From positions 256,001 to 320,000 of the forward strand of contig CAVZZO010000001.1 of NCBI GenBank assembly GCA_963779755.1: 64,000 nucleotides of DNA. Direction: 5' to 3'. Made by a program: the position numbers and the translations under genes. This document shows positions 2,000 to 49,021 of the stretch, in pieces. The notes beneath the pieces are model-generated. The model ran no database searches, was not told the DNA's origin, and saw only the letters and a list, made by a program, of their open reading frames with translations. This stretch comes from an uncultured Gemmatimonadales bacterium. Lineage in GTDB: Bacteria > Gemmatimonadota > Gemmatimonadetes > Gemmatimonadales > GWC2-71-9. The first letter of the stretch is position 1; every line of letters begins with the position of its first letter.

Positions 2000-2472
2000 G
2001 GAGTTCCCCCGGCGGCCTGCATGTGCGGATCGGGGAGCCGCAGGACCGCCTGCCAGCTCAGCACCTCTCCGCCGACCAGGTGCTGCAGGCTGTCCGCCTC
2101 GGCGCCCGGGCGCACGGCGGCGAGCCCGCTCCCCATGGGCGTATGCAGCCGGTCGCTGCGGAGATAGACGGCGCTGTCCGCCGGGAGGCGCCGCTCCGGC
2201 TGGAAGAAATCGTTGACCCAGAGGCCGGCGACGGCCGCCGTGTCGACCCGCCCCCCGCGATAGAATCGCGCCAGGCAACCGGCCTCATCGAAGGCGTAGA
2301 CTTTCCCCCTACGGGTCACCAGCTGCGCCGCATACCGCGGCTCGGCAATGGTCATGTGGCAGTGATCGCAGGCCTGCCGGCCGTATGCAATGGGCGCCGG
2401 TGGAGCGGCGGAGCCGCCGCATCCCTGGAGCACGGCCAGCAGCAGCAACAGGAACACCGGACGCGACCTCAC
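1996..2472 (-). CDS. nosL: Copper chaperone lipoprotein NosL
   Basis: Lipobox-like LQGC; CDHCHMTI (CxxCxM), FDEAGC and TPMGSGL motifs typical of NosL; nos context. Confidence 0.9.
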   Translation of the reverse strand: MRSRPVFLLLLLAVLQGCGGSAAPPAPIAYGRQACDHCHMTIAEPRYAAQLVTRRGKVYAFDEAGCLARFYRGGRVDTAAVAGLWVNDFFQPERRLPADSAVYLRSDRLHTPMGSGLAAVRPGAEADSLQHLVGGEVLSWQAVLRLPDPHMQAAGGTP

Positions 2473-3107
2473 ACCGCCACCGTTTCGGAACGAGCCGGGC
2501 GGACGGAGGAGGCCCGCGCCGGGCCGTTCCCCGCCTTGCGCCGGCGCCCCTCCAGCAGAAAGATCCCCAGGGCAACCGCCACCACGCCAAAGGCGACCCA
2601 GGCGCCCGCCGCCGGCCAGGAGAAGGCGTGGAAGTTCAGCATCTGGCGGCCGCCGAGCAGCGGCGGCTGATACGACATTCCGGGGATCTTGATGGCGGCG
2701 TGCGGGTTGAGATTATGGCCGTAGTCGTATTCCCACTTGTAGAAGTCGGCCAGCCCGCCGGCGGCCAGGGCCAGGAACACGGCCAGCCACACCCCCAGCA
2801 TCCAGCGCCGCCCGCCCGCCGCCGCGGCCAGCCCCAGCAGAATGAGCCCGCGCACGATCCAGGGCATGATACGGAGCTCGGGAATGGCGTCGGGGTCGAT
2901 CGCCTTCATGCCGATGTAGTGGTTGAGGCCGTTGATGCTCTGCAGATCCTGGGGCTTCTCGCCGCGGATGTGATCCATCTCGATGTAGAGCCCCAGGCCT
3001 TCGGGATATTGCGGCGCCTTGAGCGCGATATGCCACAGCGGCAGGGCGTAGAGCAGGCCCAGCGCAAGCACGGCGACGGCAAGCAGGATTCGAGAGGACC
3101 GTTGCAT
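2469..3107 (-). CDS. nosB: Clade II nos membrane protein (NosB-like)
   Basis: About 4 hydrophobic segments; APQYPEGL, INGLNHYIGM, YDYGHNL, PGMSYQPPLLG motifs; directly downstream of nosZ. Start 3107 preferred (GGAG upstream); 3122 is the alternative. Confidence 0.8.
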   Translation of the reverse strand: MQRSSRILLAVAVLALGLLYALPLWHIALKAPQYPEGLGLYIEMDHIRGEKPQDLQSINGLNHYIGMKAIDPDAIPELRIMPWIVRGLILLGLAAAAGGRRWMLGVWLAVFLALAAGGLADFYKWEYDYGHNLNPHAAIKIPGMSYQPPLLGGRQMLNFHAFSWPAAGAWVAFGVVAVALGIFLLEGRRRKAGNGPARASSVRPARSETVAV

Positions 3108-3146
3108 CACATCTTCTCCCATCCAAGACCTGGGACTGAAGACCGG

Positions 3147-3185
3147 GGACTGAGCCGAGACCGTGGAAGCCTCGCTCAGTCCTCA
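3147..3185 (-). promoter_or_regulatory. Intergenic stem-loop between nosZ and nosB (mRNA stabiliser or attenuator)
   Basis: GGGACTGAGCCGAG ... CTCGCTCAGTCCTC inverted repeat built from heptamer-like units; no U-tract. Confidence 0.5.
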
Positions 3186-3199
3186 GCCTCCAGCCCTGG

Positions 3200-5167
3200 T
3201 TACTGCGGAGTGTTGTAGGTGACCGCCACCTGCGAACCCCGCGGCGACACCCGGATGTAGCCCTGCATCTCCTGGTGAAGAGCGGAGCAGAAATCGGTGC
3301 AGTAGAACGGAAAGACTCCGATCTTCTGCGGCACCCAGACCAGGGTCCGGGTCTGCCCCGGCATGATGAGCAGCTCGGCGTTCTGATTCCCCAGCACCGC
3401 GAACCCGTGCGGGACATCCCAGTCCTGCTCCAGGTTGGTAACGTGGAAGTAGACGGAATCGCCCAGCTGCACGCCTTCGATATTATCGGGCATGAAGTGA
3501 CTGCGGATCGCCGTCATATACACGTGCACCTTGCTGCCCTCCCGCACCACCTTCGCGTCCTTTTCGCTCCGGGTGACGAAGGGGTCCTTGCTGTCGGCCA
3601 GGGAGTAGGTCTTGACCTGCTTGTCCTTGATGATGGAGGCCGGCAGCGCCTGCGCGTAATGCGGCTCTCCGATGGTGGGGAAGTCGAGCAGCATCTTCAT
3701 CTTGTCGCCGCTGATGTCGATCAGCTGGGCCGATTGGGTCAGCTCGGGCCCGGTGGGCAGGTAGCGGTCCTTGGTGATCTTGTTGAGCGCCACCAGGTAC
3801 TTGCCCCAGGGCTGATGGCTGTCGCCGCCCGGAATCATCAGATGGCCGATAGAGTAGTACACCGGAATCCGGTCTACCACCTTGAAGTCCTTCAGGCTCC
3901 ACTTCACCACCTCGGAGCTGATGAACATCGAGGTATAGGCGTAGCCCTTGCCGTCGAACTCGGTGTGCAACGGCCCCAGCCCGGGGTTCTGCACCTCGCC
4001 GGCCAGAACGGATTCATACTTCAGCACCGGGATGCCGTCGACCTCGCCCTCGAATTCCCGGTTCTCGATCGCCTTCAGCATCTTCGTGAAGGAATGCACC
4101 GGGATCACCGTGGAGAGCTTGCCCCCCGCCGCAATGAACTCGCCGGTGGGATCCACGTTGACGCCGTGCGGCGACTTGGGGGTGGGAAGGAAGTAAATCA
4201 TCCCCGGGCAGTCCTGGACGTTGAGCACCTTCACGCTGGTGAGCATCTCGCTCCTGGCGCGCTGGTCCTCTCCGATCCAGTTATGCGCGTACCGGGCAGG
4301 CTCCGTCCGCGCCTTGCCCGCGCCGACACACTGTTCAGCCTGTTTCCAGTTCACGGCGGCGACATAATCTTTGTCCTTCTGCGAGGCATTCACCTCCAGC
4401 AGGGTGTGTGCCTGCTCCGAGTTGTAGGAGGTGAAGAAGGCCCACCCGCTGGACGGGCCCTTGCCGGCGCGGGCCAGGTCGTAATCGAAGCCCGGAACCC
4501 TGATCTGAAAGGCGATCGCCATGCGGCCGGTGGAGGAATCCACCTTCGTGAAGGTGATCAGGCCGGCGAATGCTTTGGCATAATCGGCAATGGACACGTC
4601 GCGCTGAGGCGTCGGGACGCTGAATCGGGTCGCGGCCACGGCGTATTCGGTATTCGACGTCACGAAGGGGGACGCATGGTTGCCCGCCGAGTTCGGGATC
4701 TCCAGGATTTCGTCGGTCTCGAACCGGGTCAGGTCCAGCCGGGCGATCCGGGGCGTGTTGTTGCCATTGATAAACAGCCAGCGGCCGTCGGGAACACCGC
4801 CGGTCTGAGACAGTTCGGGGTGGTGGGCATCATCCCACGGCACAAACCCGTAACTGGTCATCAGCATGTTCTTGGTGTCTTCGCTGTATCCGTAGCCGTT
4901 TTCCGCATTCTGCGCGAAGACCGGCACCAGCCGCAGCAGGCGCCCGGAAGGAAGGCCATACACGCCGACCTGGCCGTTGAACCCGCCCGACATGAACGCG
5001 TAGAACTCATCGTACTTGCCTGGGGGGACGTACACCCGCTGGGCCGCATCGCCGGCGCTGGCGACGGCCGGCGTATCGCTCGTGCCGCAACCGCTCAGCG
5101 ACAGCGCGCCGGCGGTGAGGGCCAGCATCCCGAATCCCGAAAGGGGAAACCGCATCCTGCCGAACAT
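3200..5167 (-). CDS. nosZ: Sec-dependent (clade II) nitrous oxide reductase
   Basis: GGAGG RBS before ATG 5167; LSGC lipobox and no twin-arginine motif; CuZ histidines (DAHH, GNH, PHG, GPLH, IGH, EPH); CuA motif H...CTDFCSALHQEM; no C-terminal haem c domain. Confidence 0.97.
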   Translation of the reverse strand: MFGRMRFPLSGFGMLALTAGALSLSGCGTSDTPAVASAGDAAQRVYVPPGKYDEFYAFMSGGFNGQVGVYGLPSGRLLRLVPVFAQNAENGYGYSEDTKNMLMTSYGFVPWDDAHHPELSQTGGVPDGRWLFINGNNTPRIARLDLTRFETDEILEIPNSAGNHASPFVTSNTEYAVAATRFSVPTPQRDVSIADYAKAFAGLITFTKVDSSTGRMAIAFQIRVPGFDYDLARAGKGPSSGWAFFTSYNSEQAHTLLEVNASQKDKDYVAAVNWKQAEQCVGAGKARTEPARYAHNWIGEDQRARSEMLTSVKVLNVQDCPGMIYFLPTPKSPHGVNVDPTGEFIAAGGKLSTVIPVHSFTKMLKAIENREFEGEVDGIPVLKYESVLAGEVQNPGLGPLHTEFDGKGYAYTSMFISSEVVKWSLKDFKVVDRIPVYYSIGHLMIPGGDSHQPWGKYLVALNKITKDRYLPTGPELTQSAQLIDISGDKMKMLLDFPTIGEPHYAQALPASIIKDKQVKTYSLADSKDPFVTRSEKDAKVVREGSKVHVYMTAIRSHFMPDNIEGVQLGDSVYFHVTNLEQDWDVPHGFAVLGNQNAELLIMPGQTRTLVWVPQKIGVFPFYCTDFCSALHQEMQGYIRVSPRGSQVAVTYNTPQ

Positions 5168-5217
5168 GTGGTAACCTCCAAGAAGGCCAGGGGCCGGTTG
5201 GACGTGAGGTGTCGCGC

Positions 5218-5706
5218 TTACTTGCCGGCGGCCGTGGTATCCACGGACCGGAAATACTCCAGCAGATCCCGCGCTTCCTCGCGCGTGAGGTTCAGATTGG
5301 GCATCTGAGTCATGTACTCGCCCAGCAGCTGCCGGGCGGCGGGATGTTTGTTGTACATCCCGTCGGGGTTGAGGATCATGTTCATGACATAGGCGGGAGT
5401 GCGCCGCTCGGTGACCTGCCCCAGGGGCGGCCCCACATAGCGTTGATCCAGTTTGTGGCAGGCGCTGCACTTGCTCTCGAAGAGTTTCTCCCCCCGTTCC
5501 GCCATCTCATGGTCCACCGGCCCCACCTCGACCGCCTGGGTGACCGGCCCAATGCCGTTTTCCAGCTGGAAGGGCGTGAGGCCTGTATCAGCCGCCGCGG
5601 CAGGGGCCTCGGAGTCGCCGGACTGCGAGTCGCCCTTCCCACCACAGCCGGCAGCGAATACCAGGGCAGCCACCAGAGCGAATCTGTTAAATGATTGTGA
5701 AACCAT
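5218..5706 (-). CDS. Monohaem c-type cytochrome lipoprotein (nos-associated, NosC-like)
   Basis: Signal ending AAGC; CSACH haem motif; VGPPL and distal YMTQMPN; first gene of the nos cluster. Confidence 0.88.
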   Translation of the reverse strand: MVSQSFNRFALVAALVFAAGCGGKGDSQSGDSEAPAAAADTGLTPFQLENGIGPVTQAVEVGPVDHEMAERGEKLFESKCSACHKLDQRYVGPPLGQVTERRTPAYVMNMILNPDGMYNKHPAARQLLGEYMTQMPNLNLTREEARDLLEYFRSVDTTAAGK

Positions 5707-5793
5707 AACTTCCTCGGTATGCAGGGAGAGCCATGGGCCCGTGTTCAGGCCGGATCTGGACGTCGGGCTGCCTGAGCCCTACATTGTGGGGGA

Positions 5794-5823
5794 GATATTA
5801 TCATATTCACATGATAATATCAA
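5794..5823. promoter_or_regulatory. Perfect 11-6-11 palindrome (putative Rrf2 operator) overlapping a sigma70-type promoter for the nos operon
   Basis: GATATTATCAT (5794-5804), 6 bp spacer, ATGATAATATC (5811-5821). Minus strand reads TTGATA-N17-TAATAT (5823-5795). Confidence 0.7.
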
Positions 5824-5876
5824 GAACTACCTTTGAAGGGTCCTTCATGGTACTGCCCCAGAAGCCGGAGAATCCC

Positions 5877-6275
5877 GTGCTGTCGCAGACCGCCGAGTAT
5901 GCCCTGCGGACCGTGCTCCACCTCGCCAGCCGCCCCCCCGGGAGCGGGCCCGCCCGGGTAGGCGAGCTGGCCCGCATCCTGGGCATTCCTCAGAACTATC
6001 TCTCCAAAACGCTGCACCTGCTGGCACGGGATGGCATCCTGTCCTCGACTCGCGGCAAGCATGGCGGCTTTCAGCTCGCCCGCCCTGCCGACCGGATCAC
6101 CCTGCTCGATATCGTCGGCCCCTTCGACCGGATGGAGCAGCGCCGGCAGTGCCTGCTCGGCCGTCCCACCTGCAGTGATCTCACCCCCTGCGCGGCGCAC
6201 GGGCGGTGGCGCGAAACGGCCGAGAAGGTGGCCAGTTTCTTCCGCGAAACAACGGTGGCCGATCTGCAGGACTGA
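5877..6275 (+). CDS. Rrf2 family transcriptional regulator, probable Fe-S cluster
   Basis: LSQTAEYALR, YLSKTLHLL, STRGKHGGFQLARPADRITLLDIV; C-X6-C-X5-C-X2-H. GTG 5877 has GGAG upstream; ATG 5847 is the alternative. Confidence 0.92.
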   Translation: MLSQTAEYALRTVLHLASRPPGSGPARVGELARILGIPQNYLSKTLHLLARDGILSSTRGKHGGFQLARPADRITLLDIVGPFDRMEQRRQCLLGRPTCSDLTPCAAHGRWRETAEKVASFFRETTVADLQD

Positions 6276-6368
6276 GCCGGCGGATACCGCCGGGAAGCGG
6301 AATGCCACAGATTAGGGGGCGTTTACCCGTAGAATCGCACTCTTCGCCTCCTCCTGTGGATTTCGATC

Positions 6369-7682
6369 ATGCAGGAAACCGCCCTCACGCCGGTCGAGCT
6401 GTCGGACGCCTGGTCGATACTCTCCCTGGAAGAGCGGCTCGAAGGCTTCCGGCTGCTCCAGCCGGATGACGCCGAGGAGTTCTTCGACGGCCTGAGTGCC
6501 CGCGACCAGGCCGAGCTGATTCTCGCCTTCCCGGCCTCGGAGCACCGCCGCTGGATGCGCATGCTCCCTCCGGACGACGCCGCCGACGTACTGCAGGCGG
6601 CGCCGGAAGAGGAGCGGGGGCGGCTGCTGTCGCTGATCGACGACGGCACCCGCCGCGAAGTCACCGCCCTGCTGGCCTACGCCGAAGACGAAGCCGGAGG
6701 CCTCATGAGCCCCCGGTTTGCGCGGGTGCGGCCGGACATGAGCGTGGACGAGGCGCTGCTCTATCTCCGCAAGCAGGCCGTCCAGCCCGACCAGACCCTC
6801 TATTACGCCTATGTGCTGGACGCGGAACAGCGGCTGCTCGGCGTCATTTCGGTGCGGGGCCTGTTTACCGCCCCCCCGGGCAGGCTGGTGCGGGACACCA
6901 TGGCATCCCCGCCGATCGCGGTGAGCGAGGAAATGGACCAGGAGGCGGTCGCCCGGGTCTTCGCGGAGCACGACCTGCTGGCGGTACCGGTGGTAGACGG
7001 CTACGGCCGCATGAAGGGTGTCGTCACGGTAGACGACATCGTCGAGGTGGTGGAGGAGGAAGCGACCGAGGACATCCAGAAGATCGGCGGCTCGGAAGCG
7101 CTGGATGCGCCCTACCTGCAGGTGGGGCTGGGCGCGATGATCCGCAAGCGGGCCGGCTGGCTGGCGGCGCTCTTTCTGGGCGAAATGCTGACCGCCACGG
7201 CCATGGGGTTCTATCAGCGGGAGATCGCCCAGGCGGTGGTGCTGGCGCTGTTCGTGCCGCTCATCATCAGCAGCGGCGGCAATTCCGGCTCGCAGGCTAC
7301 CACGCTGGTCATCCGCGCCATTGCGCTGCGGGAAGTCCGGCTGCCGGACTGGTGGCGCGTCATGCGCCGCGAGCTGGCAGCCGGCCTCAGTCTGGGGCTT
7401 ATCCTCGCGGCTATCGGCCTGGTTCGCATCCTGGTCTGGCAGGGGGTCGGGGACGCCTATGGGCCGCATTACCTTGCGATTGCGCTGACGGTGGCCATCA
7501 GCCTGGTGGGCGTGGTTCTCTGGGGCACCCTCGCCGGTTCGATGCTGCCGTTCGTGCTGAGGCGCCTCGGGTTCGACCCGGCCAGCGCCTCCGCCCCGTT
7601 CGTCGCCACGGTGGTCGACGTCACCGGACTGGTGATCTACTTCTCCGTGGCCAGCATCATCCTGCACGGTACCCTGCTCTGA
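6369..7682 (+). CDS. mgtE: Magnesium transporter MgtE
   Basis: MgtE N-domain, CBS pair, membrane domain with GGNSGSQA and DPASASAPFVATVVDVTG. Confidence 0.95.
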   Translation: MQETALTPVELSDAWSILSLEERLEGFRLLQPDDAEEFFDGLSARDQAELILAFPASEHRRWMRMLPPDDAADVLQAAPEEERGRLLSLIDDGTRREVTALLAYAEDEAGGLMSPRFARVRPDMSVDEALLYLRKQAVQPDQTLYYAYVLDAEQRLLGVISVRGLFTAPPGRLVRDTMASPPIAVSEEMDQEAVARVFAEHDLLAVPVVDGYGRMKGVVTVDDIVEVVEEEATEDIQKIGGSEALDAPYLQVGLGAMIRKRAGWLAALFLGEMLTATAMGFYQREIAQAVVLALFVPLIISSGGNSGSQATTLVIRAIALREVRLPDWWRVMRRELAAGLSLGLILAAIGLVRILVWQGVGDAYGPHYLAIALTVAISLVGVVLWGTLAGSMLPFVLRRLGFDPASASAPFVATVVDVTGLVIYFSVASIILHGTLL

Positions 7683-9842: not shown

Positions 9843-10814
9843 TTGTACCGTACCATCCTGCTGCCGCTCGACGGTTCCCGCTTTGCCGAGCAGTCCCTGC
9901 CGGCCGCCCGGGCCATCGCCCGCCGGACCGGCGCCGAGTTGCGTCTCGCCGTGGTCCACCAGCCCCTGCCCGCGTGGGCGCAGCGGGCGGTGCCCGAGGG
10001 AGCCGAGGCGCAGGCGCGGGAGTCGGAGCAGGCCTACCTGGCCGGCGTGGAGGACGACCTCCGCAAGGAGGGAATCACCCGGGTCGGAACGGTCCTGTTG
10101 CAGAGTCCCCCGGGTCATGGATTCGCCGAATCGGCCGTGCGGCAAGGCTTCACCAGCCACCTGCTGAACCGGCCCACCGGCCAGGCCCTGTCGGAATACG
10201 TGCAGTCCGCCAGAATCGACCTGGTCATCATGGCCACGCACGGCCGCGGGGCCATGAGCCGGTTCTGGCTGGGAAGCGTGGCGGACTACCTGCTGCGGCA
10301 TCTGGAGATTCCGCTGCTGCTCATCCGGCCGGTCGAGGGCCGGCCCCTGCCGTCGTTCGAGCCGCATCGGGTTCTGATCCCGGTCGACCGGTCCGAATCT
10401 TCCCTGCACGCGGTGGATGCCGCCCGGCGTCTGGGCGGTGAGATATCGGTGGAGATCGTCCATGTGGTCGAATCGGTAATCCCGGTGGGCGGGGCCGGAA
10501 TTTTCTATCCGGCGGGGACCGACCTGCAGCTCAACGAGCAGATCCAGCAGGACGCGCAGGTCTTCCTGGACCGAACCGTGGCCGGCTTCCGGCAGCAGGG
10601 GCTGAAGGTCGAGGGCCGTGCCGTCCCGGGGGCCGACGCGGCCCGTACCCTCCTCGACCTGCTGGAGCAGGACGGGTTCGACCTCATCGCCATGACCACC
10701 CATGGCGAGGGCGGCCTGCGCCCCTTCCTGCTGGGCAGCGTTACCGACAAGATCATTCGCGGCTCGGGCGTGCCGGTGCTGGTCTGGCGTCCGCCACCGC
10801 CGCCGGAAGCCTGA
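9843..10814 (+). CDS. Universal stress protein with tandem USP domains
   Basis: ILLPLDGS...MATHGRGAMSRFWLGSVADYLLR and a second domain MTTHGEGGLRPFLLGSVTDKIIR. Confidence 0.92.
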   Translation: MYRTILLPLDGSRFAEQSLPAARAIARRTGAELRLAVVHQPLPAWAQRAVPEGAEAQARESEQAYLAGVEDDLRKEGITRVGTVLLQSPPGHGFAESAVRQGFTSHLLNRPTGQALSEYVQSARIDLVIMATHGRGAMSRFWLGSVADYLLRHLEIPLLLIRPVEGRPLPSFEPHRVLIPVDRSESSLHAVDAARRLGGEISVEIVHVVESVIPVGGAGIFYPAGTDLQLNEQIQQDAQVFLDRTVAGFRQQGLKVEGRAVPGADAARTLLDLLEQDGFDLIAMTTHGEGGLRPFLLGSVTDKIIRGSGVPVLVWRPPPPPEA

Positions 10815-10858: not shown

Positions 10859-12151
10859 ATGTCCAGCCGCCGTGCGTTCGTCGCGTCGCTCTCCGGAGCG
10901 ATGGCGGCGCTGCCCGCGTTCCGCGGGCGCCCCATTCTCCAGCTCATCCGCGCCCGGGACATCGCCGGCGGGCGCTCTCCCCAGGCCGTGGCGGAGGACG
11001 AGACTTACTGGGCCGAGATCCAGCGCGCTTTCGACGCCGACCGCACGCTGATCAACCTGAACAACGGCGGCTGCTGCCCCGCGCCGACGCACGTGCTGGA
11101 GCAGATGATTCGCGACCTGCGCTTCAGCAACGAAATCCCGGTGGACCACATGTGGCGGGTCCTGGAGCCGCGGATCGAAAGCGTCCGCCGGGACCTGGCG
11201 GCGGAGTTCGGCTGCGATCCCGAGGAGATGGCGATCACCCGCAACGCGTCGGAATCGCTGGAGAACATGATCCTGGGGCTCGACCTCAAGCCGGGGGACG
11301 AGGTCATCACCACCAACCAGAACTACCCCCGGATGATTACCACCTGGCAGCAGCGGGTCCGGCGCGAGGGCATCGTCCTGAAGCAGGTTTCCTTCAAGGT
11401 CCCGCCGCCGTCGATGGACTACATCGTGGACCAATACCAGGCGGCGATCACCCCGCGCACCCGGGTGATCGAAGTCGTTCACATCACCAATCTGTCGGGC
11501 CAGATCATGCCGGTACGCCAGCTGATGGACCTGGCACGGCCCCGAGGCATCGAAGTCTTCGTGGACGGCGCCCACGCCTTCGCCCATTTCCCCTTCACCC
11601 GCGACCAGCTGGACTGCGATTTCTACGGCACCAGCCTGCACAAGTGGATGCTGGCGCCGATCGGGACGGGGTTCCTCTATGTCCGCAAGGAAAAGCAGAA
11701 AAAGCTCTGGCCCATGATGGCGGCGCCGGAGTCGATGGACGACAATATCCGGAAATACGAGGAGATCGGGACGCACCCGGCCGCCAACCACAACGCCGTC
11801 GCGGCGGCCATCGCCTTCCACCGCGGGATCGGCGCCGACCGGAAGATCGCCCGGCTGCGTTACCTGCGCGACCGCTGGGCCAAGCGGTTGCTGGCGGCGA
11901 GCCCGCGGGTGAAGATCCTCACGCCGCTGGACAGTCCCTACGGGGGCGGCATCGGCCTGCTTCACATCGACGGCATCGAGGCGCCCAAGCTGGGCACCTG
12001 GCTCTACAACAACGACCATATCGTCACCACGCCGATCGTCCACCCGGAGTTCGAGGGCCTGCGGGTTACCCCGAATGTCTATACCACTCTGGAGGAGGTG
12101 GACCTCTTTACCGACCGGGTCCAGAAAGCGATCAAGCAGGGGATGGCGTGA
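10859..12151 (+). CDS. PLP-dependent class V aminotransferase-fold enzyme (isopenicillin N epimerase-like) with Tat signal
   Basis: SRRAFV twin-arginine signal; LNNGG, VDGAHAF, TSLHKW (PLP lysine). Confidence 0.85.
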   Translation: MSSRRAFVASLSGAMAALPAFRGRPILQLIRARDIAGGRSPQAVAEDETYWAEIQRAFDADRTLINLNNGGCCPAPTHVLEQMIRDLRFSNEIPVDHMWRVLEPRIESVRRDLAAEFGCDPEEMAITRNASESLENMILGLDLKPGDEVITTNQNYPRMITTWQQRVRREGIVLKQVSFKVPPPSMDYIVDQYQAAITPRTRVIEVVHITNLSGQIMPVRQLMDLARPRGIEVFVDGAHAFAHFPFTRDQLDCDFYGTSLHKWMLAPIGTGFLYVRKEKQKKLWPMMAAPESMDDNIRKYEEIGTHPAANHNAVAAAIAFHRGIGADRKIARLRYLRDRWAKRLLAASPRVKILTPLDSPYGGGIGLLHIDGIEAPKLGTWLYNNDHIVTTPIVHPEFEGLRVTPNVYTTLEEVDLFTDRVQKAIKQGMA

Positions 12152-22696: not shown

Positions 22697-22806
22697 GGCG
22701 GCCACCCTCAACATTCTTTCAATACAGCTTCAGCCTGGCCTCACGGCCTTCATGGCATAGTGGCGTGGGCGGAGTGCGCTTCGCTCCCGCTGGCCAGGAG
22801 GCTGGT

Positions 22807-23700
22807 ATGGTCGCCATTCAGTTACCCGTCGCGCGCAGAGCCACGCTTACCACCAGGACAGCGCGTACCTACGCGCCCAGGATCGTCACCCGGCCGGAGC
22901 CCCGGCCGGCGGCCCTCCCCGTACCGCGGGTGCAGGGCATGCTGGGGGCCCGCCACCGCTCCCATCCCGTTGCCTCGTTCTTTTCCTCCCTGGGCGCGCA
23001 CCTGATGGTGATCAGTGTGATACTCGTGGCCACCCAGGCCTCCGTGGGCCCGCCGCTCATGGCCACCCCGGACACGACCATGGTCTTTCTGCAGGGCCTG
23101 CGTCCGGTCCCTGCCGAGCGGGTCCCCGCACGGCCGGAGCCCCCACCGGAGCGCGCGCAGGGACCGGGGGGAGGCGCGTTGCTCATCGCCAATCCGCCGC
23201 CCAAGGGGTTTCAGACGGTCATTGCCCCGACCTCCATTCCCGACGGCATCCCGCCCGTCGATCCGGATGAGAAACCCTATGATCCGCGCGATTTCACCGG
23301 CGTCGGCGTTGAAGGCGGCGTCTCCTATGGGTTAGTGGGAGGCACCGGACCGGTGAATCAGGACCTCACCGCGGGACTGGGCGAGGCGCTCTTCACGGCG
23401 ACATCCCGGGAAGCGGAGTTTGCTCCCGCCGAAGTGGTCTTCCAGCCGGCTCCGGTCTATCCTCCGGCGCTGCTCCGCGCGGGCCTGGAGGGCAGCCTCC
23501 GGGTGCGGTTCATCATCGACACCACCGGAAGAGTCGAAGCCGCGTCCTTCCAGGTCCTGGAGGCCAGCCTTCCGGGGTTTGAACCGGCGGTGCGGGCAAC
23601 CATCCTCGGCAGCCGCTTCCGGCCCGCCCGGCTCGGCGCAGTGGCCGTGCGGCAACTGACCGAGCAGCGGGTGAGCTTCGTCCTGGAGGACCGGCCATAG
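22807..23700 (+). CDS. TonB family energy transducer
   Basis: Membrane anchor SLGAHL, Pro-rich linker, C-terminal PVYP...GLEG...FIIDTTGRV...FRPA; AGGAG before ATG 22807. Confidence 0.8.
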   Translation: MVAIQLPVARRATLTTRTARTYAPRIVTRPEPRPAALPVPRVQGMLGARHRSHPVASFFSSLGAHLMVISVILVATQASVGPPLMATPDTTMVFLQGLRPVPAERVPARPEPPPERAQGPGGGALLIANPPPKGFQTVIAPTSIPDGIPPVDPDEKPYDPRDFTGVGVEGGVSYGLVGGTGPVNQDLTAGLGEALFTATSREAEFAPAEVVFQPAPVYPPALLRAGLEGSLRVRFIIDTTGRVEAASFQVLEASLPGFEPAVRATILGSRFRPARLGAVAVRQLTEQRVSFVLEDRP

Positions 23701-37376: not shown

Positions 37377-39961
37377 CGGCTCGCGCCACCGAGCCGGCCG
37401 GCACGCCCCTGCTGCAGCAGTACCGCGAGATCAAATCGCGGCACCGCGATGCCATCCTGTTCTTCCGGATGGGCGATTTCTACGAGATGTTCTTCGACGA
37501 CGCCGAAATCGCCTCTCGCGACCTCAAGATCACCCTCACCTCCAGGGGCGACGGGGTGCCGCTCGCCGGGGTACCGGTCAAGGCGGCGGCCGACTATCTG
37601 CGCCAGCTGCTGGCCCAGGGCCACCGGGTAGCCATCTGTGAACAGGTCGAGGATCCGCGTCTGGCGCGCGGCATCGTCAAACGGGAGGTCGTGGAGACTC
37701 TCACCCCCGGAGCGCTGCTGGAGGACGCCTTCCTCGCCGGCAGCAGGAACAACTACCTGGCCGCCATGGCGCCGCTGGGCGACCGCATCGGGCTCGCCGT
37801 TGCCGACCTCAGCACCGGCGAATTCGTGCTGGAGAGTCTCGATCCCGCCGACCAGGGCGAGGCCCTGACCCGGTTCGCTCCTGCCGAGCTGGTGCTGCCG
37901 CAGGGCTTCGAGCCGCCGGCCGACTGCGTGGCGTTGCGCACCCCGCGCGAGAGATGGGAGTTCGATCCAGGCCAGGCGGAAGCCGATCTGCGCGAACGCT
38001 TCGGACTTGCCAGTCTGGACGGCCTCGGGCTGGGCCCGGATGATCAGGCGGCGCTGGGGGCCGCGGGGGCGTTGCTGCGGTATCTCTCCGAATTGCAGCC
38101 GGCCGGCATTCCGCATCTCAACCGGCCGGTGCTGCGGCGGGCCGAAGGGCACCTCTGGCTGGACGAGATGACCCGCCGGAACCTCGAGCTGGTAGAACCG
38201 TTGCGCGCCGGAACCCGGGGGGCCACGCTGCTGGAAACCCTGGATCACACCGTTACCCCCATGGGCGCCCGGCTGCTGCGCCGCTGGGTGATGTCGCCCC
38301 TGTGCGACGCGGCGGCGATCCGCTTCCGGCTCGATGCCGTGGAGGTCCTGGCGGGCGACGGCCCCGGCCGCGAGCGCCTGCGCGAAGCCCTGGCGGGTGT
38401 CCGCGATCTCGAGCGCCTGGCCGGCCGCGCGGCGGCGGGGCGGGCGAACCCCCGGGAGTTGGGCGGCCTGCGCGACTCCCTCCAGCGCCTCCCCGACGTG
38501 CTGGAGGCCCTCTCCGGCCTGCGCGTCGGCGAACGCAGCGAGGCGCTGGCCGGCGCCATCGATTCCTTTGACCTCCATGCCGAGCTGGCGAGCCTGCTCG
38601 GCGCCGCTCTCGCCGACCGGCTGCCGGCCACGCTGAGTGAGGGCGAGGTGATCCGGCCGGGCTACGACGGAGAGCTGGACGAGCTCCGCGGCCTGCGCGA
38701 GGGCGGCAAGCAGTACATTGCCGCGCTGCAGCAACGGGAGCGCGACCGCACCGGCATTCCCAGCCTCAAGGTGGGGTACAACAAGGTCTTCGGGTATTAC
38801 CTCGAGGTGACTCACGCGCACAGCGCCCGGGTGCCCGCGGAGTACGAGCGGCGGCAGACCCTGGCCAACGCCGAGCGCTACGTCACGCCGGAGCTGAAGG
38901 AGTACGAGGCCAAGGTACTGGGGGCCGAAGATCGCATCGGGACCCGCGAGGCGGAGCTGTTCCAGGCGCTGCGGCAACGGGCCGGCGGCGTCGCGGCGGC
39001 CCTGCAGCAGAGCGGGCGGACGCTGGCCCGTCTGGATGTCTGGTCATCCCTGGCGGAGGTGGCGGTGGGCCAGGCCTACGTGCGGCCCGAGGTGGACGGC
39101 GAGTTCGGGCTGCGCCTGCGCGCCGGCCGGCACCCGGTGATTGAACGGCTCATGCCCCGCGAGTCGTTCATCCCCAACGACGTGCTCTTCGAGGCCGGGG
39201 CGCGTGTCCTGCTGGTAACGGGCCCCAACATGGCCGGTAAGTCCACCATCCTGCGGCAGATCGGCCTCTGCGTGGTGCTGGCCCAGATGGGCTCGTTCGT
39301 GCCCGCGGCCGAGGCCCGGATCGGCCTGGTGGATCGTCTCTTCACCCGGGTCGGGGCCAGCGACAACCTGGCGCGGGGTCAGTCCACCTTCATGGTGGAA
39401 ATGAGCGAGACCAGCGCGATCCTGCACAACGCTACCGCCCGCAGCCTGGTACTGCTCGATGAGATCGGCCGGGGCACCTCCACCTATGACGGCGTGGCGA
39501 TCGCCTGGGCGGTCACCGAACACCTGCACGACCGCGTAGGCTGCAAGACCATGTTCGCCACCCATTACCACGAGCTCATGCAGCTGCCCGAACGGCTGCA
39601 GCACGCGCGCAACCTGAACGTCGCGGTGCGCGAGCAGGAGGGCAGGGTGGTGTTCCTGCACCGGCTGGAACCCGGGGGGACCGATCAGTCGTATGGCATT
39701 CACGTGGCGCAGCTGGCCGGGTTGCCCGACGGCGTGCTGGCCCGGGCCCGGGAGGTGCTCCACACGCTGGAAGGCGATCACCGGGTCCTGCCGGGCCCGC
39801 CGCCGGTGATCGACCCGGCCCAGCTGCAGCTCTTCCGCCCGCCGGCCGATCCCGATCCCATGCTGGAAGAGCTGCGGGCAATCGACGTGAACTCTCTCAC
39901 TCCGCTGGAGGCGCTCAACCGCCTGGCTGAGCTCACCCGGCGCGCCGGAAAGCGCCCATGA
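37373..39961 (+). CDS. mutS: DNA mismatch repair protein MutS
   Basis: TPLLQQY, FFRMGDFYEMF, TGPNMAGKST, STFMVEM, DEIGRGTST, FATHYHEL, SYGIHVA. Confidence 0.98.
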   Translation: MTARATEPAGTPLLQQYREIKSRHRDAILFFRMGDFYEMFFDDAEIASRDLKITLTSRGDGVPLAGVPVKAAADYLRQLLAQGHRVAICEQVEDPRLARGIVKREVVETLTPGALLEDAFLAGSRNNYLAAMAPLGDRIGLAVADLSTGEFVLESLDPADQGEALTRFAPAELVLPQGFEPPADCVALRTPRERWEFDPGQAEADLRERFGLASLDGLGLGPDDQAALGAAGALLRYLSELQPAGIPHLNRPVLRRAEGHLWLDEMTRRNLELVEPLRAGTRGATLLETLDHTVTPMGARLLRRWVMSPLCDAAAIRFRLDAVEVLAGDGPGRERLREALAGVRDLERLAGRAAAGRANPRELGGLRDSLQRLPDVLEALSGLRVGERSEALAGAIDSFDLHAELASLLGAALADRLPATLSEGEVIRPGYDGELDELRGLREGGKQYIAALQQRERDRTGIPSLKVGYNKVFGYYLEVTHAHSARVPAEYERRQTLANAERYVTPELKEYEAKVLGAEDRIGTREAELFQALRQRAGGVAAALQQSGRTLARLDVWSSLAEVAVGQAYVRPEVDGEFGLRLRAGRHPVIERLMPRESFIPNDVLFEAGARVLLVTGPNMAGKSTILRQIGLCVVLAQMGSFVPAAEARIGLVDRLFTRVGASDNLARGQSTFMVEMSETSAILHNATARSLVLLDEIGRGTSTYDGVAIAWAVTEHLHDRVGCKTMFATHYHELMQLPERLQHARNLNVAVREQEGRVVFLHRLEPGGTDQSYGIHVAQLAGLPDGVLARAREVLHTLEGDHRVLPGPPPVIDPAQLQLFRPPADPDPMLEELRAIDVNSLTPLEALNRLAELTRRAGKRP

Positions 39962-40356
39962 CCCGACGCTGGCTCTGTCTCCTGCTCCTGCTGCCGGCCT
40001 GTGACGGCCGGGCCGATCGCGATGCGGTCTCGGCACGCCCGCCCGACGGCCCGGACAACGCGCCGCCGGTGGCCCTCAACGCCGATAACCCGGTGACCTA
40101 TCCGCCCGACCTCTACGCCCGCGGCGTGGAGGGCGAAGTGAGGCTCCAGCTCTATGTCGACAGTTCGGGGACGGTGGTGCCGGACAGCACGCGCGTCGCG
40201 CAATCCAGCGGCTATCCCGCCCTTGATTCGGCCGCGGTGGCCGATGCCCCCCGGCTGCGGTTTTCGCCGGCGCTGCGGAACGGCAGGCCGGTGGCGGCCA
40301 CCTTCTTGCAACCCATACGCTTTCACCACCCCCAACGGGGAGGAAGCACTCCGTGA
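39958..40356 (+). CDS. Small TonB C-terminal domain protein, possible lipoprotein
   Basis: LLLPAC signal; YPP..GVEGEV, SSGYPALDSAA, FSPA..GRPV. Confidence 0.8.
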   Translation: MTRRWLCLLLLLPACDGRADRDAVSARPPDGPDNAPPVALNADNPVTYPPDLYARGVEGEVRLQLYVDSSGTVVPDSTRVAQSSGYPALDSAAVADAPRLRFSPALRNGRPVAATFLQPIRFHHPQRGGSTP

Positions 40357-45269: not shown

Positions 45270-46592
45270 CTACTTCCCCACACAGAAGCTCGAAAACAAC
45301 CGGTCCAGCACCTGCTCGATATCTACGGTGCCGATCAGCGCGGCCAGATGCTCGGTTGCCTCGCGCACCTGATGGGCGGCGAGCACGGCGTCCCCACCCG
45401 GCTCCAGATGCGGCGCGGCGTGGTCCAGTGCCTGAGCGGCCCGTTCCAGGCCGACCCGGTGCCGCTCCCGGGTGAGCACCGGCTCGAGATCCAGATACTG
45501 CCCCGGTTCGGCGAACAGCAGCTCCACGCAGCGCCGCCGCAGCCGGTCCAGACCGTTCCCGCTCACCACGGAGACGCCGAGCTCGCCGTCCGGAACGGCG
45601 GCGAGGTCCGTCTTGGTCCGCACCAGCAGCGTCCGCGGGCCCAGCAACGCCCTCTCCGCCTCCTCGGGAGCGCGCCCGCTCTCGACGCAGAGCAGGACCA
45701 GGTCGGCGCCACCCAGAAAGCGGCGGCTCATGGCCACCCCCATCCGGTCTACTTCCTCGCTGAACTCCGCCAGCCCGGCGGTATCCACCAGCCGGACCGG
45801 CCAGCCGGAGAAATCGGTGTCACTCTCCACGGCGTCGCGCGTGGTGCCCGGCGTGGCGGACACCAGCACCCGGTCGCTCCCCAGCAGGGCGTTGAACAGC
45901 GAGGACTTGCCGGCATTGGGCCGGCCGGCGATCACCACGACGGCGCCTTCCCGTACCCGCTGGCCCGCCGGAGCGGTCCGCAACAGCCCGGCAACGCTCC
46001 CGCGGACCTCCCGCCAGGCCGCTCGCAGGCGATCGGCGGAGACCGGCCCGTCGTCCTCTTCGGGGAAATCCACGTCGTAGCTGAGGAGTGCCTGCAACTC
46101 CACCAGTTTCAGCCGCAACTCCTCCAGGCGCCGCGAGAGTCCTCCGTCGAGCTGGTGCAGGGCCAGCCTGGCCTGGGCGGGCGCGCCGGCATCGATCAGA
46201 TCCCCCACCGCCTCGGCCTGCACCAGGTCCAGCTTGCCGTTGAGAACCGCGCGGCGGGTGAACTCGCCCGGGGCGGCGGCCCGGGCACCGGCGGCCTGGA
46301 GTGCGGCCAGCACGGCTGCCGGCGCGACCGCTCCCCCATGGCAGATCAGCTCCACCATGGGCTCGCCGGTATAGCTCGCCGGGGCCCGGTAGGCCAGATA
46401 GATCCCCCGGTCGATCGCCTGGCCGGCCGGGGTGCGGAAACCGGCCAGCCGGGCCGTGCGCGGCGGGTCGGGGGAGAACCCCTCGATGACCCGCGCGGCG
46501 ACGCCGAAGGCGTCGGCGCCGGAGAGGCGCACGACCGCAAGCGCAGACCGCCCCGGCGGGGTTGCCAGGGCGGTAATCGGGTCGGAGAGCAT
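45270..46592 (-). CDS. mnmE: tRNA modification GTPase MnmE
   Basis: ATPPGRSA, SYTGE, CHGG, PGEFTRRA, GRPNAGKSSL, GTTRD, DTAG, FSSFCVGK. Confidence 0.97.
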   Translation of the reverse strand: MLSDPITALATPPGRSALAVVRLSGADAFGVAARVIEGFSPDPPRTARLAGFRTPAGQAIDRGIYLAYRAPASYTGEPMVELICHGGAVAPAAVLAALQAAGARAAAPGEFTRRAVLNGKLDLVQAEAVGDLIDAGAPAQARLALHQLDGGLSRRLEELRLKLVELQALLSYDVDFPEEDDGPVSADRLRAAWREVRGSVAGLLRTAPAGQRVREGAVVVIAGRPNAGKSSLFNALLGSDRVLVSATPGTTRDAVESDTDFSGWPVRLVDTAGLAEFSEEVDRMGVAMSRRFLGGADLVLLCVESGRAPEEAERALLGPRTLLVRTKTDLAAVPDGELGVSVVSGNGLDRLRRRCVELLFAEPGQYLDLEPVLTRERHRVGLERAAQALDHAAPHLEPGGDAVLAAHQVREATEHLAALIGTVDIEQVLDRLFSSFCVGK

Positions 46593-46602
46593 GGGTGGGC
46601 CT

Positions 46603-48264
46603 CTACCCCTTCGGGTTCGGCGGCTTGGGTGGCTGCTTCCGCAGCCGTTCCTGGGAGATCCACCACTGCTGGGGGATGCTCACGAGGTTGCTGACCGAAT
46701 AATACAGGTTGAGTCCCGACGCGAAGTTGGCGAACAGCACGGTCATGACGACCGGCATCGCGTAGAGCATGATCTTGGTCTGCGGGTTGGGCTGCATGCC
46801 GCGCTGGGCGATCTTGTTCAGCACGTACATGGAGACGCCCATGATGACCGGGATGATGTAGTACGGATCCCGGCCCGACAGATCGTGCAGCCAGAGGAAA
46901 GGCGTGCCGCGCAGCTCGATGGTGGAGTCGAAGACGAAGAACAGCGCGAAGAGCACCGGGAGCGGGATGAACAGCGGCAGGCATCCCCCCAGCGGATTCA
47001 CGTTGTGTTCCTTGTACAGCTTGAACATCTCCTGCTGCAGCTTCTGCGGATTCTCCTTGTATTTGTCCTGGATCGCCTTCAGTTCGGGCTGGATGGCCTG
47101 CATTGCCATGCTGGAACGCATGGCCTTCTGGTTGAGGGGCCAGAGGACGACCCGCACCACGATGCCGAAGATGATCAGCACGATGCCGTAGGCGATGTGC
47201 AGATGCTGGTGCATCCAGACCAGCGTCCAGCGAACCGCCAGCGCCACCGGACGGATGACCGTCCGGAACCCGGGCCAGCCGTAGGGGTTCACATCGTCGA
47301 AGTCGTGACCGATCTGGCCCAGCCGGGAATACTCCATCGGCCCCGCATAGGCGCTGTAATGGAACGCGCCGGCGGGCCCGATCGGCATGCTGAGCTCGAC
47401 ATCGGCCTTGGAAGGCTGCTTGCCGGCGTTGGGCGCGGGGGTGGCCGTGACGCCGGTGATCCGCGGCTGGGTGCTGTCCAGCGCGAAGATGGCGGTGACG
47501 AAGTACTTGGACTTCACCGCGACCCATTCGAACGGCCCGTCCAGGGTCTTTATTTCCCCGGCTTTGAGCTTGGAAAACGGCGTGGCCTGGGTGCCGCTGG
47601 CCTTGGTCACCACCGCGAGCGAGCGATGCAGCTGGGAGGAGTCCGCCTCGGTGTTCCGGATGCCGGGCCCGAGGCCGATCAGCAGGACGCCGCCGTTGGG
47701 GCCCAGGCCATGTACGGTGCCTTCGACATCGAAGAGGTAGCGGTCGGGCAGGAAACGGTAGGTCAGCTCGGCCGAGACGCCCTGGCGGGAGGCGGAGAGC
47801 CGCAGGGTGGCCGGCGCGGTGACGTTGAGCTGCGTCGTGGACGGCGTAAAGGTCCATCGGTCCAGCCGCAGCGTGTCCTTCCCCACCAGCAGCTTGAGCC
47901 CGAGGAGATCGCTGTCGGGGTGCAGCAACTGCACCGCCGAATCGGCCCGCCCCGGGGCCATGGAGCGGAACTGGGGCAGCACGGCACGGATCAGGCGCCC
48001 GCCCAGCGTGCTCACGTCGTACTGGTAGAGCTGGCTGCTGGCGTGGACCGTGTCGGCCGGAACGGTATCGGGCGCGCCCGGCGTGGAGACCGGAGCCGGC
48101 GCACTGACCTGCGGAGCCGGGACAGCGACCGGGACCGTCGCATTGGTGTCCGGAGCCGCCGCAGCCGGCGGCCGGACCGGACGCGACGTGGGCTTGAGCA
48201 GGAAGGTCGGTACGATCGCGATGAGCATCATCAACACGATCGCCCAGATAATACGACGGTCCAT
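46603..48264 (-). CDS. yidC: Membrane protein insertase YidC
   Basis: N-terminal TM, periplasmic domain, YKEHNVNPLGGCLP, FLWLHDLSGRDPY, GLNLYYSVSN. Confidence 0.97.
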   Translation of the reverse strand: MDRRIIWAIVLMMLIAIVPTFLLKPTSRPVRPPAAAAPDTNATVPVAVPAPQVSAPAPVSTPGAPDTVPADTVHASSQLYQYDVSTLGGRLIRAVLPQFRSMAPGRADSAVQLLHPDSDLLGLKLLVGKDTLRLDRWTFTPSTTQLNVTAPATLRLSASRQGVSAELTYRFLPDRYLFDVEGTVHGLGPNGGVLLIGLGPGIRNTEADSSQLHRSLAVVTKASGTQATPFSKLKAGEIKTLDGPFEWVAVKSKYFVTAIFALDSTQPRITGVTATPAPNAGKQPSKADVELSMPIGPAGAFHYSAYAGPMEYSRLGQIGHDFDDVNPYGWPGFRTVIRPVALAVRWTLVWMHQHLHIAYGIVLIIFGIVVRVVLWPLNQKAMRSSMAMQAIQPELKAIQDKYKENPQKLQQEMFKLYKEHNVNPLGGCLPLFIPLPVLFALFFVFDSTIELRGTPFLWLHDLSGRDPYYIIPVIMGVSMYVLNKIAQRGMQPNPQTKIMLYAMPVVMTVLFANFASGLNLYYSVSNLVSIPQQWWISQERLRKQPPKPPNPKG

Positions 48265-48279
48265 TTACCGGATCACAGA

Positions 48280-48543
48280 TCAGGGAACAGGGTCAACACC
48301 GCCGGGGTGCCACGGATGGCAGCGCGCCAGGCGTCGCACGCCCAGCCACCCGCCCCGCAGGACTCCGTAGCGCCGCACCGCTTCCAGCGTATACTGCGAA
48401 CAGGACGGCGTGAAGCGGCAGCTGGGGGGCAGGAGCGGCGACAGGACTACCTGATACGCCCGGATCAGCAGGGCCACCGCCCGACGCGGCAGCAGCACCA
48501 GTCGCCGCACGCTCAGCGGCCCGGCGATACGATCCGGCTCCAT
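48280..48543 (-). CDS. yidD: Membrane protein insertion efficiency factor YidD
   Basis: [10 protein letters not shown]...[10 protein letters not shown]...[14 protein letters not shown]. Start uncertain. Confidence 0.93.
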
Positions 48544-48863
48544 GACTCCAGCTCATTCCGCAGCGCTCCGAATCCGGCCTGGTAGGCCGGCGGACGCGCG
48601 CGGATCACGACATCCCGGGCCGGCTGCCGGCTCTGGAGATTCCGCCGCCAGATTTCCCGCAGACGCCGGCGCAAACGATTGCGGGCCACCGCGGAGGACT
48701 GATAGCGGGGAACGATCAGTCCGATCCGAGGGTGGCCCGCCGCGTTGTCCGCCCAGATCACGTCGAGGTGCTCCGTCCGGTGCCGCCGGCCGCCAGCCAG
48801 AACCCGCCGGATGTCCGAGGCCCGCGCGAGCCGCCAGGCCCGCGGAAGCCTCTCCGGCGTCAG
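48513..48863 (-). CDS. rnpA: Ribonuclease P protein component (probable CTG start)
   Basis: [25 protein letters not shown] (RNR motif), DVVIRAR. RnpA-like N-terminus [21 protein letters not shown] extends upstream of GTG 48761 to CTG 48863, which overlaps the rpmH stop. Confidence 0.88.
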
Positions 48864-49021
48864 GCGCCTCCGTGCTTCGACGGCAGCGAGATCGCGAGCC
48901 GCTTCCGGCCCTTCTTGCGGCGACGGGACAGGACCTGCCGGCCCCAGCGATCCGCCATCCGGGCTCGAAAACCATGCTTGTTGATGCGCCGCCTGTTGCG
49001 CGGCCGATACGACGGTTTCAT
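48860..49021 (-). CDS. rpmH: 50S ribosomal protein L34
   Basis: Manual translation [61 protein letters not shown]; too short for the ORF track. Confidence 0.96.

Follow-up and report, generated by a model that had tools for sequence, protein, structure and literature searches.

The stretch analysed here, which we call the window, comprises 64,000 nucleotides of an uncultured Gemmatimonadales bacterium (contig CAVZZO010000001.1, positions 256,001 to 320,000). Between its minus-strand cytochrome c-nosZ operon, which encodes a clade II nitrous oxide (N2O) reductase, and a plus-strand gene for a regulator of the Rrf2 family lies a perfect, AT-rich palindrome of 28 bases. The palindrome is conserved across soil Gemmatimonadota and probably lets the regulator switch N2O consumption on and off. 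In the model that we consider fairly likely, it would be the operator of the divergent Rrf2 protein, a putative iron-sulphur (Fe-S) repressor of both cytochrome c-nosZ and its own gene.

The palindrome (5794-5821, no strand assigned; hereafter the box) consists of GATATTATCAT (5794-5804), the spacer ATTCAC (5805-5810) and ATGATAATATC (5811-5821), so that two arms of 11 bases form an inverted repeat around six central bases (11-N6-11). Its conserved core is ATCAT (5800-5804), N6 and ATGAT (5811-5815). A preliminary description of the window had reported this palindrome within an AT-rich patch, and both are exactly as described: the GC content is 0.35 at 5790-5849, compared to 0.58-0.82 in the flanks (60-nt bins). 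Even at a tolerance of three mismatches, the window has a single copy of the pattern, and none of 100 dinucleotide-preserving shuffles has one. The same description held that each half of the palindrome is itself nearly palindromic. This is true of the right arm, which is near-palindromic together with one flanking base (TGATAATATCA, 5812-5822). The left half-site is symmetrical only approximately, position 5793 being A and not T, and relatives, in which the three outer motif positions are weak, do not keep the half-site symmetry. Folded as DNA, the palindrome reaches -7.1 kcal/mol (z = -4.1), a trivial consequence of its symmetry. We rejected a hairpin or terminator, given that the genes on either side of the box diverge and that a scan gave no terminator-like site; an Rfam scan of 5400-6400 returned no RNA element at E values up to 1.

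Of 578 confirmed related loci, retrieved with an alignment of 34 Rrf2 proteins, the best 80 were taken, all of them from metagenome-assembled genomes of Gemmatimonadota. Rrf2 relatives at 58-71% identity are many, and all the named ones come from this phylum. Divergent from the regulator, 43 of the 80 loci have cytochrome c and/or nosZ, like the window, and the other 37 have something else. Counting the window along with the loci as rows, there are 44 nos-linked rows and 35 other rows with usable upstream DNA; two loci did not have enough upstream sequence. From the 160 nt preceding each of these 79 Rrf2 genes, de novo expectation-maximisation (EM) constrained to palindromes returned the motif ..taTtatCAT.t..a.ATGataAta.., which scores at least 16.6 bits in 77 of the 79 regions. 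It is present in all 44 nos-linked rows (17.6 bits or more) and in 33 of the 35 others (16.6 bits or more), and the copy in the window has the highest score, 39.9 bits. Upstream of the Rrf2 genes of L056 and L061 the motif was not found. Conservation is highest at the C-A-T and A-T-G core positions (0.87-0.98) and weak at the central six and the outer three. The preliminary description had named the failure of such phylogenetic footprinting as a possible refutation, and the footprinting came out in its favour.

The box is also highly specific to its location. A scan of 593 kb of loci with the position weight matrix (PWM) gave only two matches above 8 bits in the roughly 570 kb outside the Rrf2 upstream regions, both of them in L056, in tandem, before an oxidase-SCO1-Rrf2 operon. 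In the window no other match exceeds 14.3 bits, and the next non-overlapping one scores 3.7 bits. Exact ATCAT-N6-ATGAT sequences number 28 in 24.4 kb of upstream regions and zero in 569 kb elsewhere. The box accompanies the Rrf2 gene in two distinct neighbourhoods (see below), as is classically seen for the operator of a factor that regulates its own gene. Its length of 28 bp and its uninformative centre fit the solved Rrf2-DNA complexes, which contain fragments of 23 bp (NsrR), 29 bp (IscR) and 39 bp (RsrR) and are described in the available text of PMC9338935 as having no base contacts in the central 7 bp. The pairing of operator and regulator proposed at the outset is thus well supported by comparative evidence. 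We are confident that the box is a genuine, functional cis element linked to the Rrf2 gene. Its binding by the adjacent Rrf2 protein, which we infer from this pairing, is predicted and in our view likely.

Some loci depart from the usual arrangement. L056 carries a tandem duplication of about 95 bp (330-470) with two boxes (349 and 445) and one TGAA-N6-TTCA site (415), a second motif discussed below. The duplication precedes an operon for an oxidase, SCO1/SenC, Rrf2 and a beta-propeller protein, and this is the only locus with the Rrf2 gene inside the regulated operon. The beta-propeller protein was considered as a clade III lactonase-type NosZ and rejected (42.4 bits against a cutoff of 700). 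In a clade that we call group B (about 23 rows among L009-L080) the box is shifted or degenerate, with TTCACAT or TGATCAT as the left arm and GAACAW as the spacer. On its left, at a distance of 8-10 nt, the group B box has a conserved AGTAT(A/C), whose reverse complement, TATACT/GATACT, resembles a -10 element for the nos operon. In the Rrf2 proteins of group B, Gly-Ala replaces Arg-Val at the N-terminal end of helix 2 (residues 37-38). Given that this co-variation of box and protein is confined to one clade, we did not use it as evidence.

The regulator gene (5847-6275, plus strand) encodes 142 residues when read from the ATG at 5847. The start codon is ambiguous, as a GTG at 5877 corresponds to the MLSQT start of most homologues. 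The protein belongs to the Rrf2 superfamily, as was stated before: it matches PF02082 at 6.4e-30 over profile positions 1-130 of 132, and TIGR00738, the superfamily model and the only NCBIfam model passed, at 109.3 bits (cutoff, 73.3). An AlphaFold2 model (mean pLDDT 90.1) has the winged helix-turn-helix and dimerisation-helix fold, and Foldseek relates it with a probability of 1.00 to RsrR, CymR, IscR and NsrR, with RsrR ranked first. The residues C102-X6-C109-X5-C115-X2-H118, also noted in the preliminary description, are invariant in 81 of 81 relatives. The three cysteines are those of the Fe-S cluster-binding subgroup of Rrf2 proteins, and the window protein is predicted to bind a cluster as well. 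Residues P48, N50, Y51 and K54 of the recognition helix are invariant in all 81 proteins, in nos-linked and oxidase-linked contexts alike, and so are R69, G70, G73, G74 and F75 of the wing.

Another kind of regulator could bind the box, for example a metalloregulator of the Fur family. Each arm contains TGATAAT, which resembles the heptamer of the Fur box; copper and iron are the metals of NosZ and the neighbouring oxidases; and a TonB-dependent receptor gene follows the Rrf2 gene in L016, L025 and L035. In the Fur site, however, the heptamers are in 7-1-7 order, whereas those of the box are everted with 8 bp between them. Moreover, in about 634 kb, which includes the TonB-related genes of the window (22765-23700 and 39958-40356), every copy of the box goes with an Rrf2 gene, and the box stays with that gene in both neighbourhoods. 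We regard binding by Fur or another such regulator as very improbable.

In the window the box coincides with promoter elements. A sigma-70-like match directed into cytochrome c-nosZ (5795-5823, minus strand) is made up of TTGATA (5823-5818), 17 nt and TAATAT (5800-5795), with TG before the -10 hexamer and a predicted transcription start site (TSS) near 5788. This promoter had been proposed to overlap the palindrome, and it is indeed the only sigma-70-like match in 5650-5900; it agrees with the consensus at 9 of 12 positions, and shuffled sequences gave 0.3 matches on average. The same architecture is present in L001, L045 and L003, the box variants nearest to that of the window. Many oxidase-linked loci have a TTGCG-like hexamer 16 nt before a TAWCAT inside the box spacer, and in these loci 4-14 nt separate the end of the box from the start codon. 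Wherever core promoter elements can be guessed, the box overlaps them, which favours repression. That the Rrf2 protein represses nos through the box is a prediction, which we hold to be slightly more probable than its opposite.

The second neighbourhood of the box features a CuA heme-copper oxidase without the catalytic tyrosine, a putative nitric oxide (NO) reductase, which flanks the Rrf2 gene in 25 or more of the 37 non-nos loci. The oxidase-linked layout comprises genes for a small protein and a cytochrome b fusion (divergent), the box, Rrf2, a CuA-type subunit II and a COX1-family subunit I. The two subunit genes form an operon directly downstream of sister Rrf2 genes (L010 4562-6894 and 18 other loci), and the same tyrosine-less oxidase is carried by L056 (991-3030) and L069 (4652-6940). 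The best PDB matches of subunit I are ba3-type (B-family) oxidases. The HPIVY sequence of ba3, with its cross-linked His-Tyr, aligns with HASQQ in L010, and GH[AS]SQQI, in which Gln replaces the catalytic tyrosine, is found in 19 of 19 oxidases. The CuA motif C-x3-C-x3-H-x2-M is present in 18 of 19 subunit II proteins. Loss of the tyrosine in CuA-bearing enzymes related to the B family is given as the criterion for putative NO reductases in the available text of Murali et al. (PMC11214002). The enzymes described here have lost the tyrosine, possess a CuA subunit II and are B-family relatives; their NO reductase activity is a prediction.

The fusion protein of these loci (520-600 residues; L010 2337-3908, minus strand; 24 loci) has an N-terminal cytochrome b, two [4Fe-4S] ferredoxin motifs and an MvhD/FlpD domain. 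It constitutes an unusual module for electron transfer in the membrane and possibly donates electrons to the tyrosine-less oxidase. A different arrangement is seen in L043 (3230-7651), where a gene for a ScdA/RIC-like N-terminal domain (80 residues) and a COX1-like open reading frame (ORF) are divergent from the box. One strand of L043 carries the genes for Rrf2, a cupredoxin, a second-type Sec-NosZ (47% identical to that of the window) and a NosB-like protein, with a TGAA-N6-TTCA site (4433) between Rrf2 and the cupredoxin.

The regulator had been called dedicated to nos, and this does not hold, as the same subfamily and the same box are found beside the tyrosine-less oxidase in at least 25 of the 80 loci and beside the ScdA/RIC-like gene in one. 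When we looked for the members of an NsrR-type regulon, the window contributed nos only, and the related loci contributed the tyrosine-less CuA oxidase (19 of 19), the ScdA/RIC-like gene (one locus) and NosZ; no hmp, hcp or nnrS was seen in the window or the related loci. The oxidase beside the non-nos copies hints at a sensor of NO or redox state, and the association with enzymes of the NO-to-N2O and N2O-to-N2 steps makes an NsrR-like, NO-responsive role the most economical guess.

In the model, an Rrf2 dimer carrying a cluster on C102, C109, C115 and H118, possibly with E17 of the partner subunit, would occupy the box. The box covers the -10 and -35 elements of the predicted cytochrome c-nosZ promoter and would also cover the regulator's own promoter, and the dimer would thus repress both. 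Damage to the cluster or its loss, most likely through NO and less likely through O2, redox state or Fe-S status, would release the DNA, and N2O reduction would be de-repressed. In other genomes, the same Rrf2 subfamily would act through the same box on the operon of the tyrosine-less CuA oxidase. A second factor, probably an activator, would act on the TGAA-N6-TTCA sequence (5834-5847) at nos promoters. We name NO as the signal with reservation, as this part of the model is somewhat more apt to be wrong than right.

Several observations weigh against the model, of which we infer everything that goes beyond the sequence itself. A strict sigma-70 promoter on the minus strand lies over the box in only 11 of the 44 nos-linked rows. 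The promoter claimed for the window is thus present there but conserved only in close relatives. The consensus used may not be that of the phylum, and the strict scan over all loci speaks neither for nor against a conserved promoter. Both arms also read TG-N-TAATAT outward on both strands, like back-to-back extended -10 elements, and part of the conservation of the box may reflect promoter rather than operator function. Taken further, this would make the palindrome mainly a pair of divergent core promoters (extended -10, TGnTAAnAT on each strand), conserved because both transcription units need it. Each arm does read A-TG-A-TAATAT outward, the only promoter match in the window uses the left arm as its -10 element with TG before it, and in oxidase-linked loci the distance from the right arm to the start codon is that expected of the -10 element of a leaderless or short-leader transcript. 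However, conservation peaks at C-A-T and A-T-G, whereas the positions of the -10 hexamer are weaker and its last base is conserved at 0.45 only, which is unusual for a -10 element. A generic element should also recur before several hundred other genes in the roughly 570 kb of loci and the 64-kb window, and the PWM finds none. Promoter and operator roles are not mutually exclusive, and we consider it improbable that the box is mainly a pair of promoters.

The features of the protein likewise do not single out NO. The window protein fails the equivalog cutoffs of NsrR, IscR, RirA, CymR and the SUF regulator; the score is 44.9 bits with the NsrR model NF008240 (cutoff 182; residues 14-96 only), and with the IscR models it is 62.7 bits for TIGR02010 (cutoff 207.55) and 49.3 bits for NF008110 (cutoff 275). 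Among solved proteins, the redox sensor RsrR is nearest in sequence (5e-11, limited to the N-terminal DNA-binding half, residues 16-103), followed by IscR (1e-9, full length), with NsrR weaker (3e-6), and the ligand set is IscR-like. Therefore, NO is a guess from gene context and not from the protein. The nos-linked and oxidase-linked proteins may, moreover, be paralogues with different effectors. In a quick tree, 43 of the 44 nos-linked proteins fall into one clade of 49 rows (SH-aLRT 87) with the oxidase-linked proteins outside, and the context labels require 8 changes on this tree, compared to 26.7 in shuffles.

The Rrf2 protein could thus bind the box as proposed and sense O2, redox or Fe-S status in the manner of RsrR or IscR, which would link N2O reduction to oxygen tension. 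The order of its solved relatives, with RsrR first in Foldseek as well, is in keeping with such a role. IscR, the [2Fe-2S] regulator of Fe-S biogenesis, shares the set of three Cys and one His, and H118 aligns with the IscR His that follows the mutated Cys triad in 4hf0, 4hf1 and 4hf2. The first Cys spacing is X6 in the window protein and not X5 as in IscR, and isc and suf genes are absent from the flanks of the regulator, both in the window and in the 80 loci. RsrR, the redox-sensing [2Fe-2S] protein of Streptomyces venezuelae, binds its cluster through Glu8, His12, Cys90 and Cys110. The position of His12 is occupied by Arg21 in the window protein, which sets the two apart. As is predicted for the regulator described here, RsrR is autoregulatory with an inverted-repeat operator, according to the available text of PMC5015018, and the operator of IscR is likewise long, with 29 bp in the solved structure (PMC9338935, available text). 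N2O reduction by Gemmatimonas aurantiaca is described as oxygen-sensitive yet proceeding in the presence of O2 in the available part of 10.1101/2022.10.27.514152. Set against an O2 or redox signal are the recurrent neighbours of the regulator: the tyrosine-less oxidase, NosZ and the ScdA/RIC-like protein represent typical NO-regulon functions, as far as these are listed in the available text of PMC1274295. The IscR-like ligands and the RsrR-like sequence leave O2, redox and Fe-S status open as signals of the putative repressor, and we think this alternative unlikely, though far from negligible.

NsrR, the NO-sensing [4Fe-4S] repressor of E. coli, Neisseria, Bacillus and Streptomyces, resembles the window regulator in its Rrf2 fold, its three conserved cysteines, its palindromic AT-rich operator over a promoter, its probable autoregulation and its neighbours in NO and N2O metabolism. 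From an alignment by eye, we take E17, present in 76 of 81 proteins, to stand at the position of NsrR Asp8. In NsrR this aspartate is a cluster ligand, according to the available text of PMC5411485. The window protein differs from NsrR in having an extra invariant His after the Cys triad and a first spacing of X6, not X5, and its predicted target is the clade II nos operon in Gemmatimonadota. The operators also differ, as had been stated: the box is ATTATCAT-N6-ATGATAAT, with CAT-N6-ATG as the core of an 11-N6-11 palindrome, whereas the NsrR consensus in the available text of PMC1274295 is gATGyAT-N5-ATrCATc. The same text places NsrR sites before norB and nirK and predicts NsrR control of nos in Neisseria and Photobacterium profundum. 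We counted this documented NsrR-type control of nor and nir, and the predicted control of nos, as a hint to an NO effector.

The final point concerns the number of inputs. The preliminary description named no further factor at nos, and a second conserved motif implies that the Rrf2 protein is not the only input. When the box was masked in the nos-linked rows, the same EM procedure found.TGAAg....cTTCA., and TGAA-N6-TTCA accompanies the box in 39 of the 44 nos-linked rows, the window included. In the window this second palindrome is TTGAAGGGTCCTTCAT (5833-5848, no strand assigned), with TGAA at 5834-5837, N6 and TTCA at 5844-5847; it overlaps the ATG at 5847 and is the proposed site of a second regulator. 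A proximal copy is centred 33 bp from the box centre in 11 rows (window included), 25-26 bp from it in 19 and 50 bp from it in one. A distal copy lies on the cytochrome c side, 55-132 bp away, in 21 rows, and is the sole copy in 8. The window is without a distal site, and five of the 44 nos-linked rows are without any TGAA site. The exact TGAA-N6-TTCA core is found in 29 of the 43 nos-linked loci, compared to one of the 37 others, and the PWM has 42 matches scoring 14 bits or more in 25.9 kb of upstream sequence, compared to 11 in 567 kb elsewhere. The centre of the site in the window is at about -52.5 from the minus-strand TSS near 5788, which is a prediction, so that the distance is uninformative. 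Given this conservation at nos-linked loci, the nos promoter probably integrates a second factor.

One could reverse the assignment and take TGAA-N6-TTCA as the cognate Rrf2 site at nos, leaving the AT-rich box to something else. The strong enrichment of the TGAA motif beside nos-linked Rrf2 genes would fit, as would its overlap with the possible start at 5847 in the window. However, the motif is absent from all 25 oxidase-linked loci, where the EM 'motif' is coding sequence, despite the invariant recognition helix. It spans 14-16 bp, less than the 23-29-bp sites of solved Rrf2 complexes (PMC9338935, available text), and high-scoring extra copies precede a gene for an OmpR-type response regulator in L060, L063 and L074. 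We find this assignment hardly credible, and retain the box as the putative Rrf2 site.

These extra copies point to a candidate for the second factor. Three of the 11 outside matches lie 45-60 bp upstream of the response-regulator gene in the three loci just named, and a fourth lies just downstream of a homologous kinase ORF in L053, as far as the gene call extends. The response-regulator gene is preceded by one for a GAF-domain histidine kinase (L060 5574-7611, L063 5279-7339, L074 5708-7708, L053 6951-8063). The pair is located 1.5-3 kb downstream of the nos-linked Rrf2 gene, and the TGAA site before the response-regulator gene scores 20 bits. The pair is a candidate second nos regulator, and the only regulators nearby that carry a TGAA site; given that all four loci belong to one clade, it amounts to a single evolutionary observation, a lead and not proof.

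The geometry of TGAA-N6-TTCA is that of CRP-family sites, which are 5-6-5 or 16-bp palindromes. No Crp/Fnr gene was found beside TGAA sites in the neighbour clusters or extra ORFs scanned, and neither a Crp/Fnr protein nor the kinase/response-regulator pair was found among the called ORFs of the window. Within that scope the locus differs from Crp/Fnr-type nos control (DNR, FnrP, NnrR; Nss of Wolinella), and the TGAA motif differs from the DNR box CTTGATnnnnATCAAG, which precedes nosZ in proteobacteria (PMC1274295, available text).

Rrf2 repressors of denitrification genes are established, and the predicted regulator would be a new variant: an Fe-S Rrf2 repressor with IscR-like ligands, NsrR-like neighbours and an operator of the type CAT-N6-ATG in 11-N6-11. 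Rrf2 genes adjoining clade II nosZ where nosR is missing are described for marine sediment scaffolds, mostly of the CFB group, in PMC6264515; the available text of that paper contains no operator, no promoter analysis and no Gemmatimonadota case, and no such operator site is described in the available text of PMC10653820 either. A literature search of openly accessible main texts found no Rrf2 or NsrR operator for clade II nos and no nos regulator or operator in Gemmatimonadota. Within that scope, no such Rrf2 regulator had been connected before with a defined cis element in the promoter of a clade II nos operon.

Carriers of clade II NosZ, which include Gemmatimonadota, have come under discussion as N2O sinks, and little is known of how they switch on nosZ. 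The locus described here yields a testable cis element (the 28-bp box with its CAT-N6-ATG core), a candidate protein with conserved ligands and a second candidate site, and the PWM can be used for regulon prediction in genomes and metagenomes. A more far-reaching possibility, which we put forward as doubtful, is that the sequence of reactions from NO via N2O to N2 in Gemmatimonadota is under a phylum-specific circuit with two inputs. The Rrf2 protein would repress both the NOR-like oxidase and nos through the 11-N6-11 box, and the TGAA factor, possibly the GAF kinase/OmpR pair, would be required at nos promoters specifically. In these abundant soil bacteria NO would then control N2O consumption, in place of the FNR/NosR logic of clade I organisms.

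The remaining genes of the nos cluster are all on the minus strand. The first gene of the operon (5218-5706) encodes a mono-haem c-type cytochrome with a lipoprotein-like N-terminus (PF00034, 4.7e-11), and has a counterpart before nosZ in 38 of the 43 nos-linked loci. NosZ (3200-5170) is a Sec-dependent, clade II enzyme, as it matches TIGR04246 at 1.4e-281 with 934.9 bits (cutoff, 625), compared to 375.7 bits for the TAT-type model TIGR04244, and also contains PF18764. The best tblastn NosZ segment is partial or of lower identity (60-61%) in L042, L050, L053, L064 and L079, which could be due to frameshifts, assembly errors or split alignments. Downstream of nosZ lies the gene for a conserved membrane protein (2469-3122), which had no Pfam or NCBIfam match and is 54-72% identical to the product of the same-position gene in related nos-linked loci; it stands where NosB would be expected and is a candidate for that protein. 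NosL (1996-2472, PF05573), NosD (758 to about 2000, PF05048) and a NosF-like ABC ATPase (3-770, PF00005), which runs off the window, complete the cluster.

Gene calling in the window was crude, with 53 ORFs selected that have at least 70 codons and a GC content at third codon positions (GC3) above 0.74. No protein of the CRP/FNR (DNR) or NosR type was found among these 53 ORFs, in agreement with the preliminary description. A replication-origin neighbourhood is located at 45270-51875, where mnmE, yidC, yidD and rnpA on the minus strand are followed by dnaA (49096-50538) and dnaN (50553-51875), which places the nos cluster about 43 kb from dnaA. A class-V aminotransferase of the NifS/IscS-like family by Pfam is encoded at 10859-12151, 4.6 kb downstream of the Rrf2 gene; being neither adjacent nor a conserved neighbour in the 80 loci, it was not counted as an isc/suf link. 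A tandem gene for a universal stress protein (Usp) is found a few kb from the Rrf2 gene (9843-10814), and in L077 a Usp gene (2825-3724) lies immediately upstream of Rrf2.

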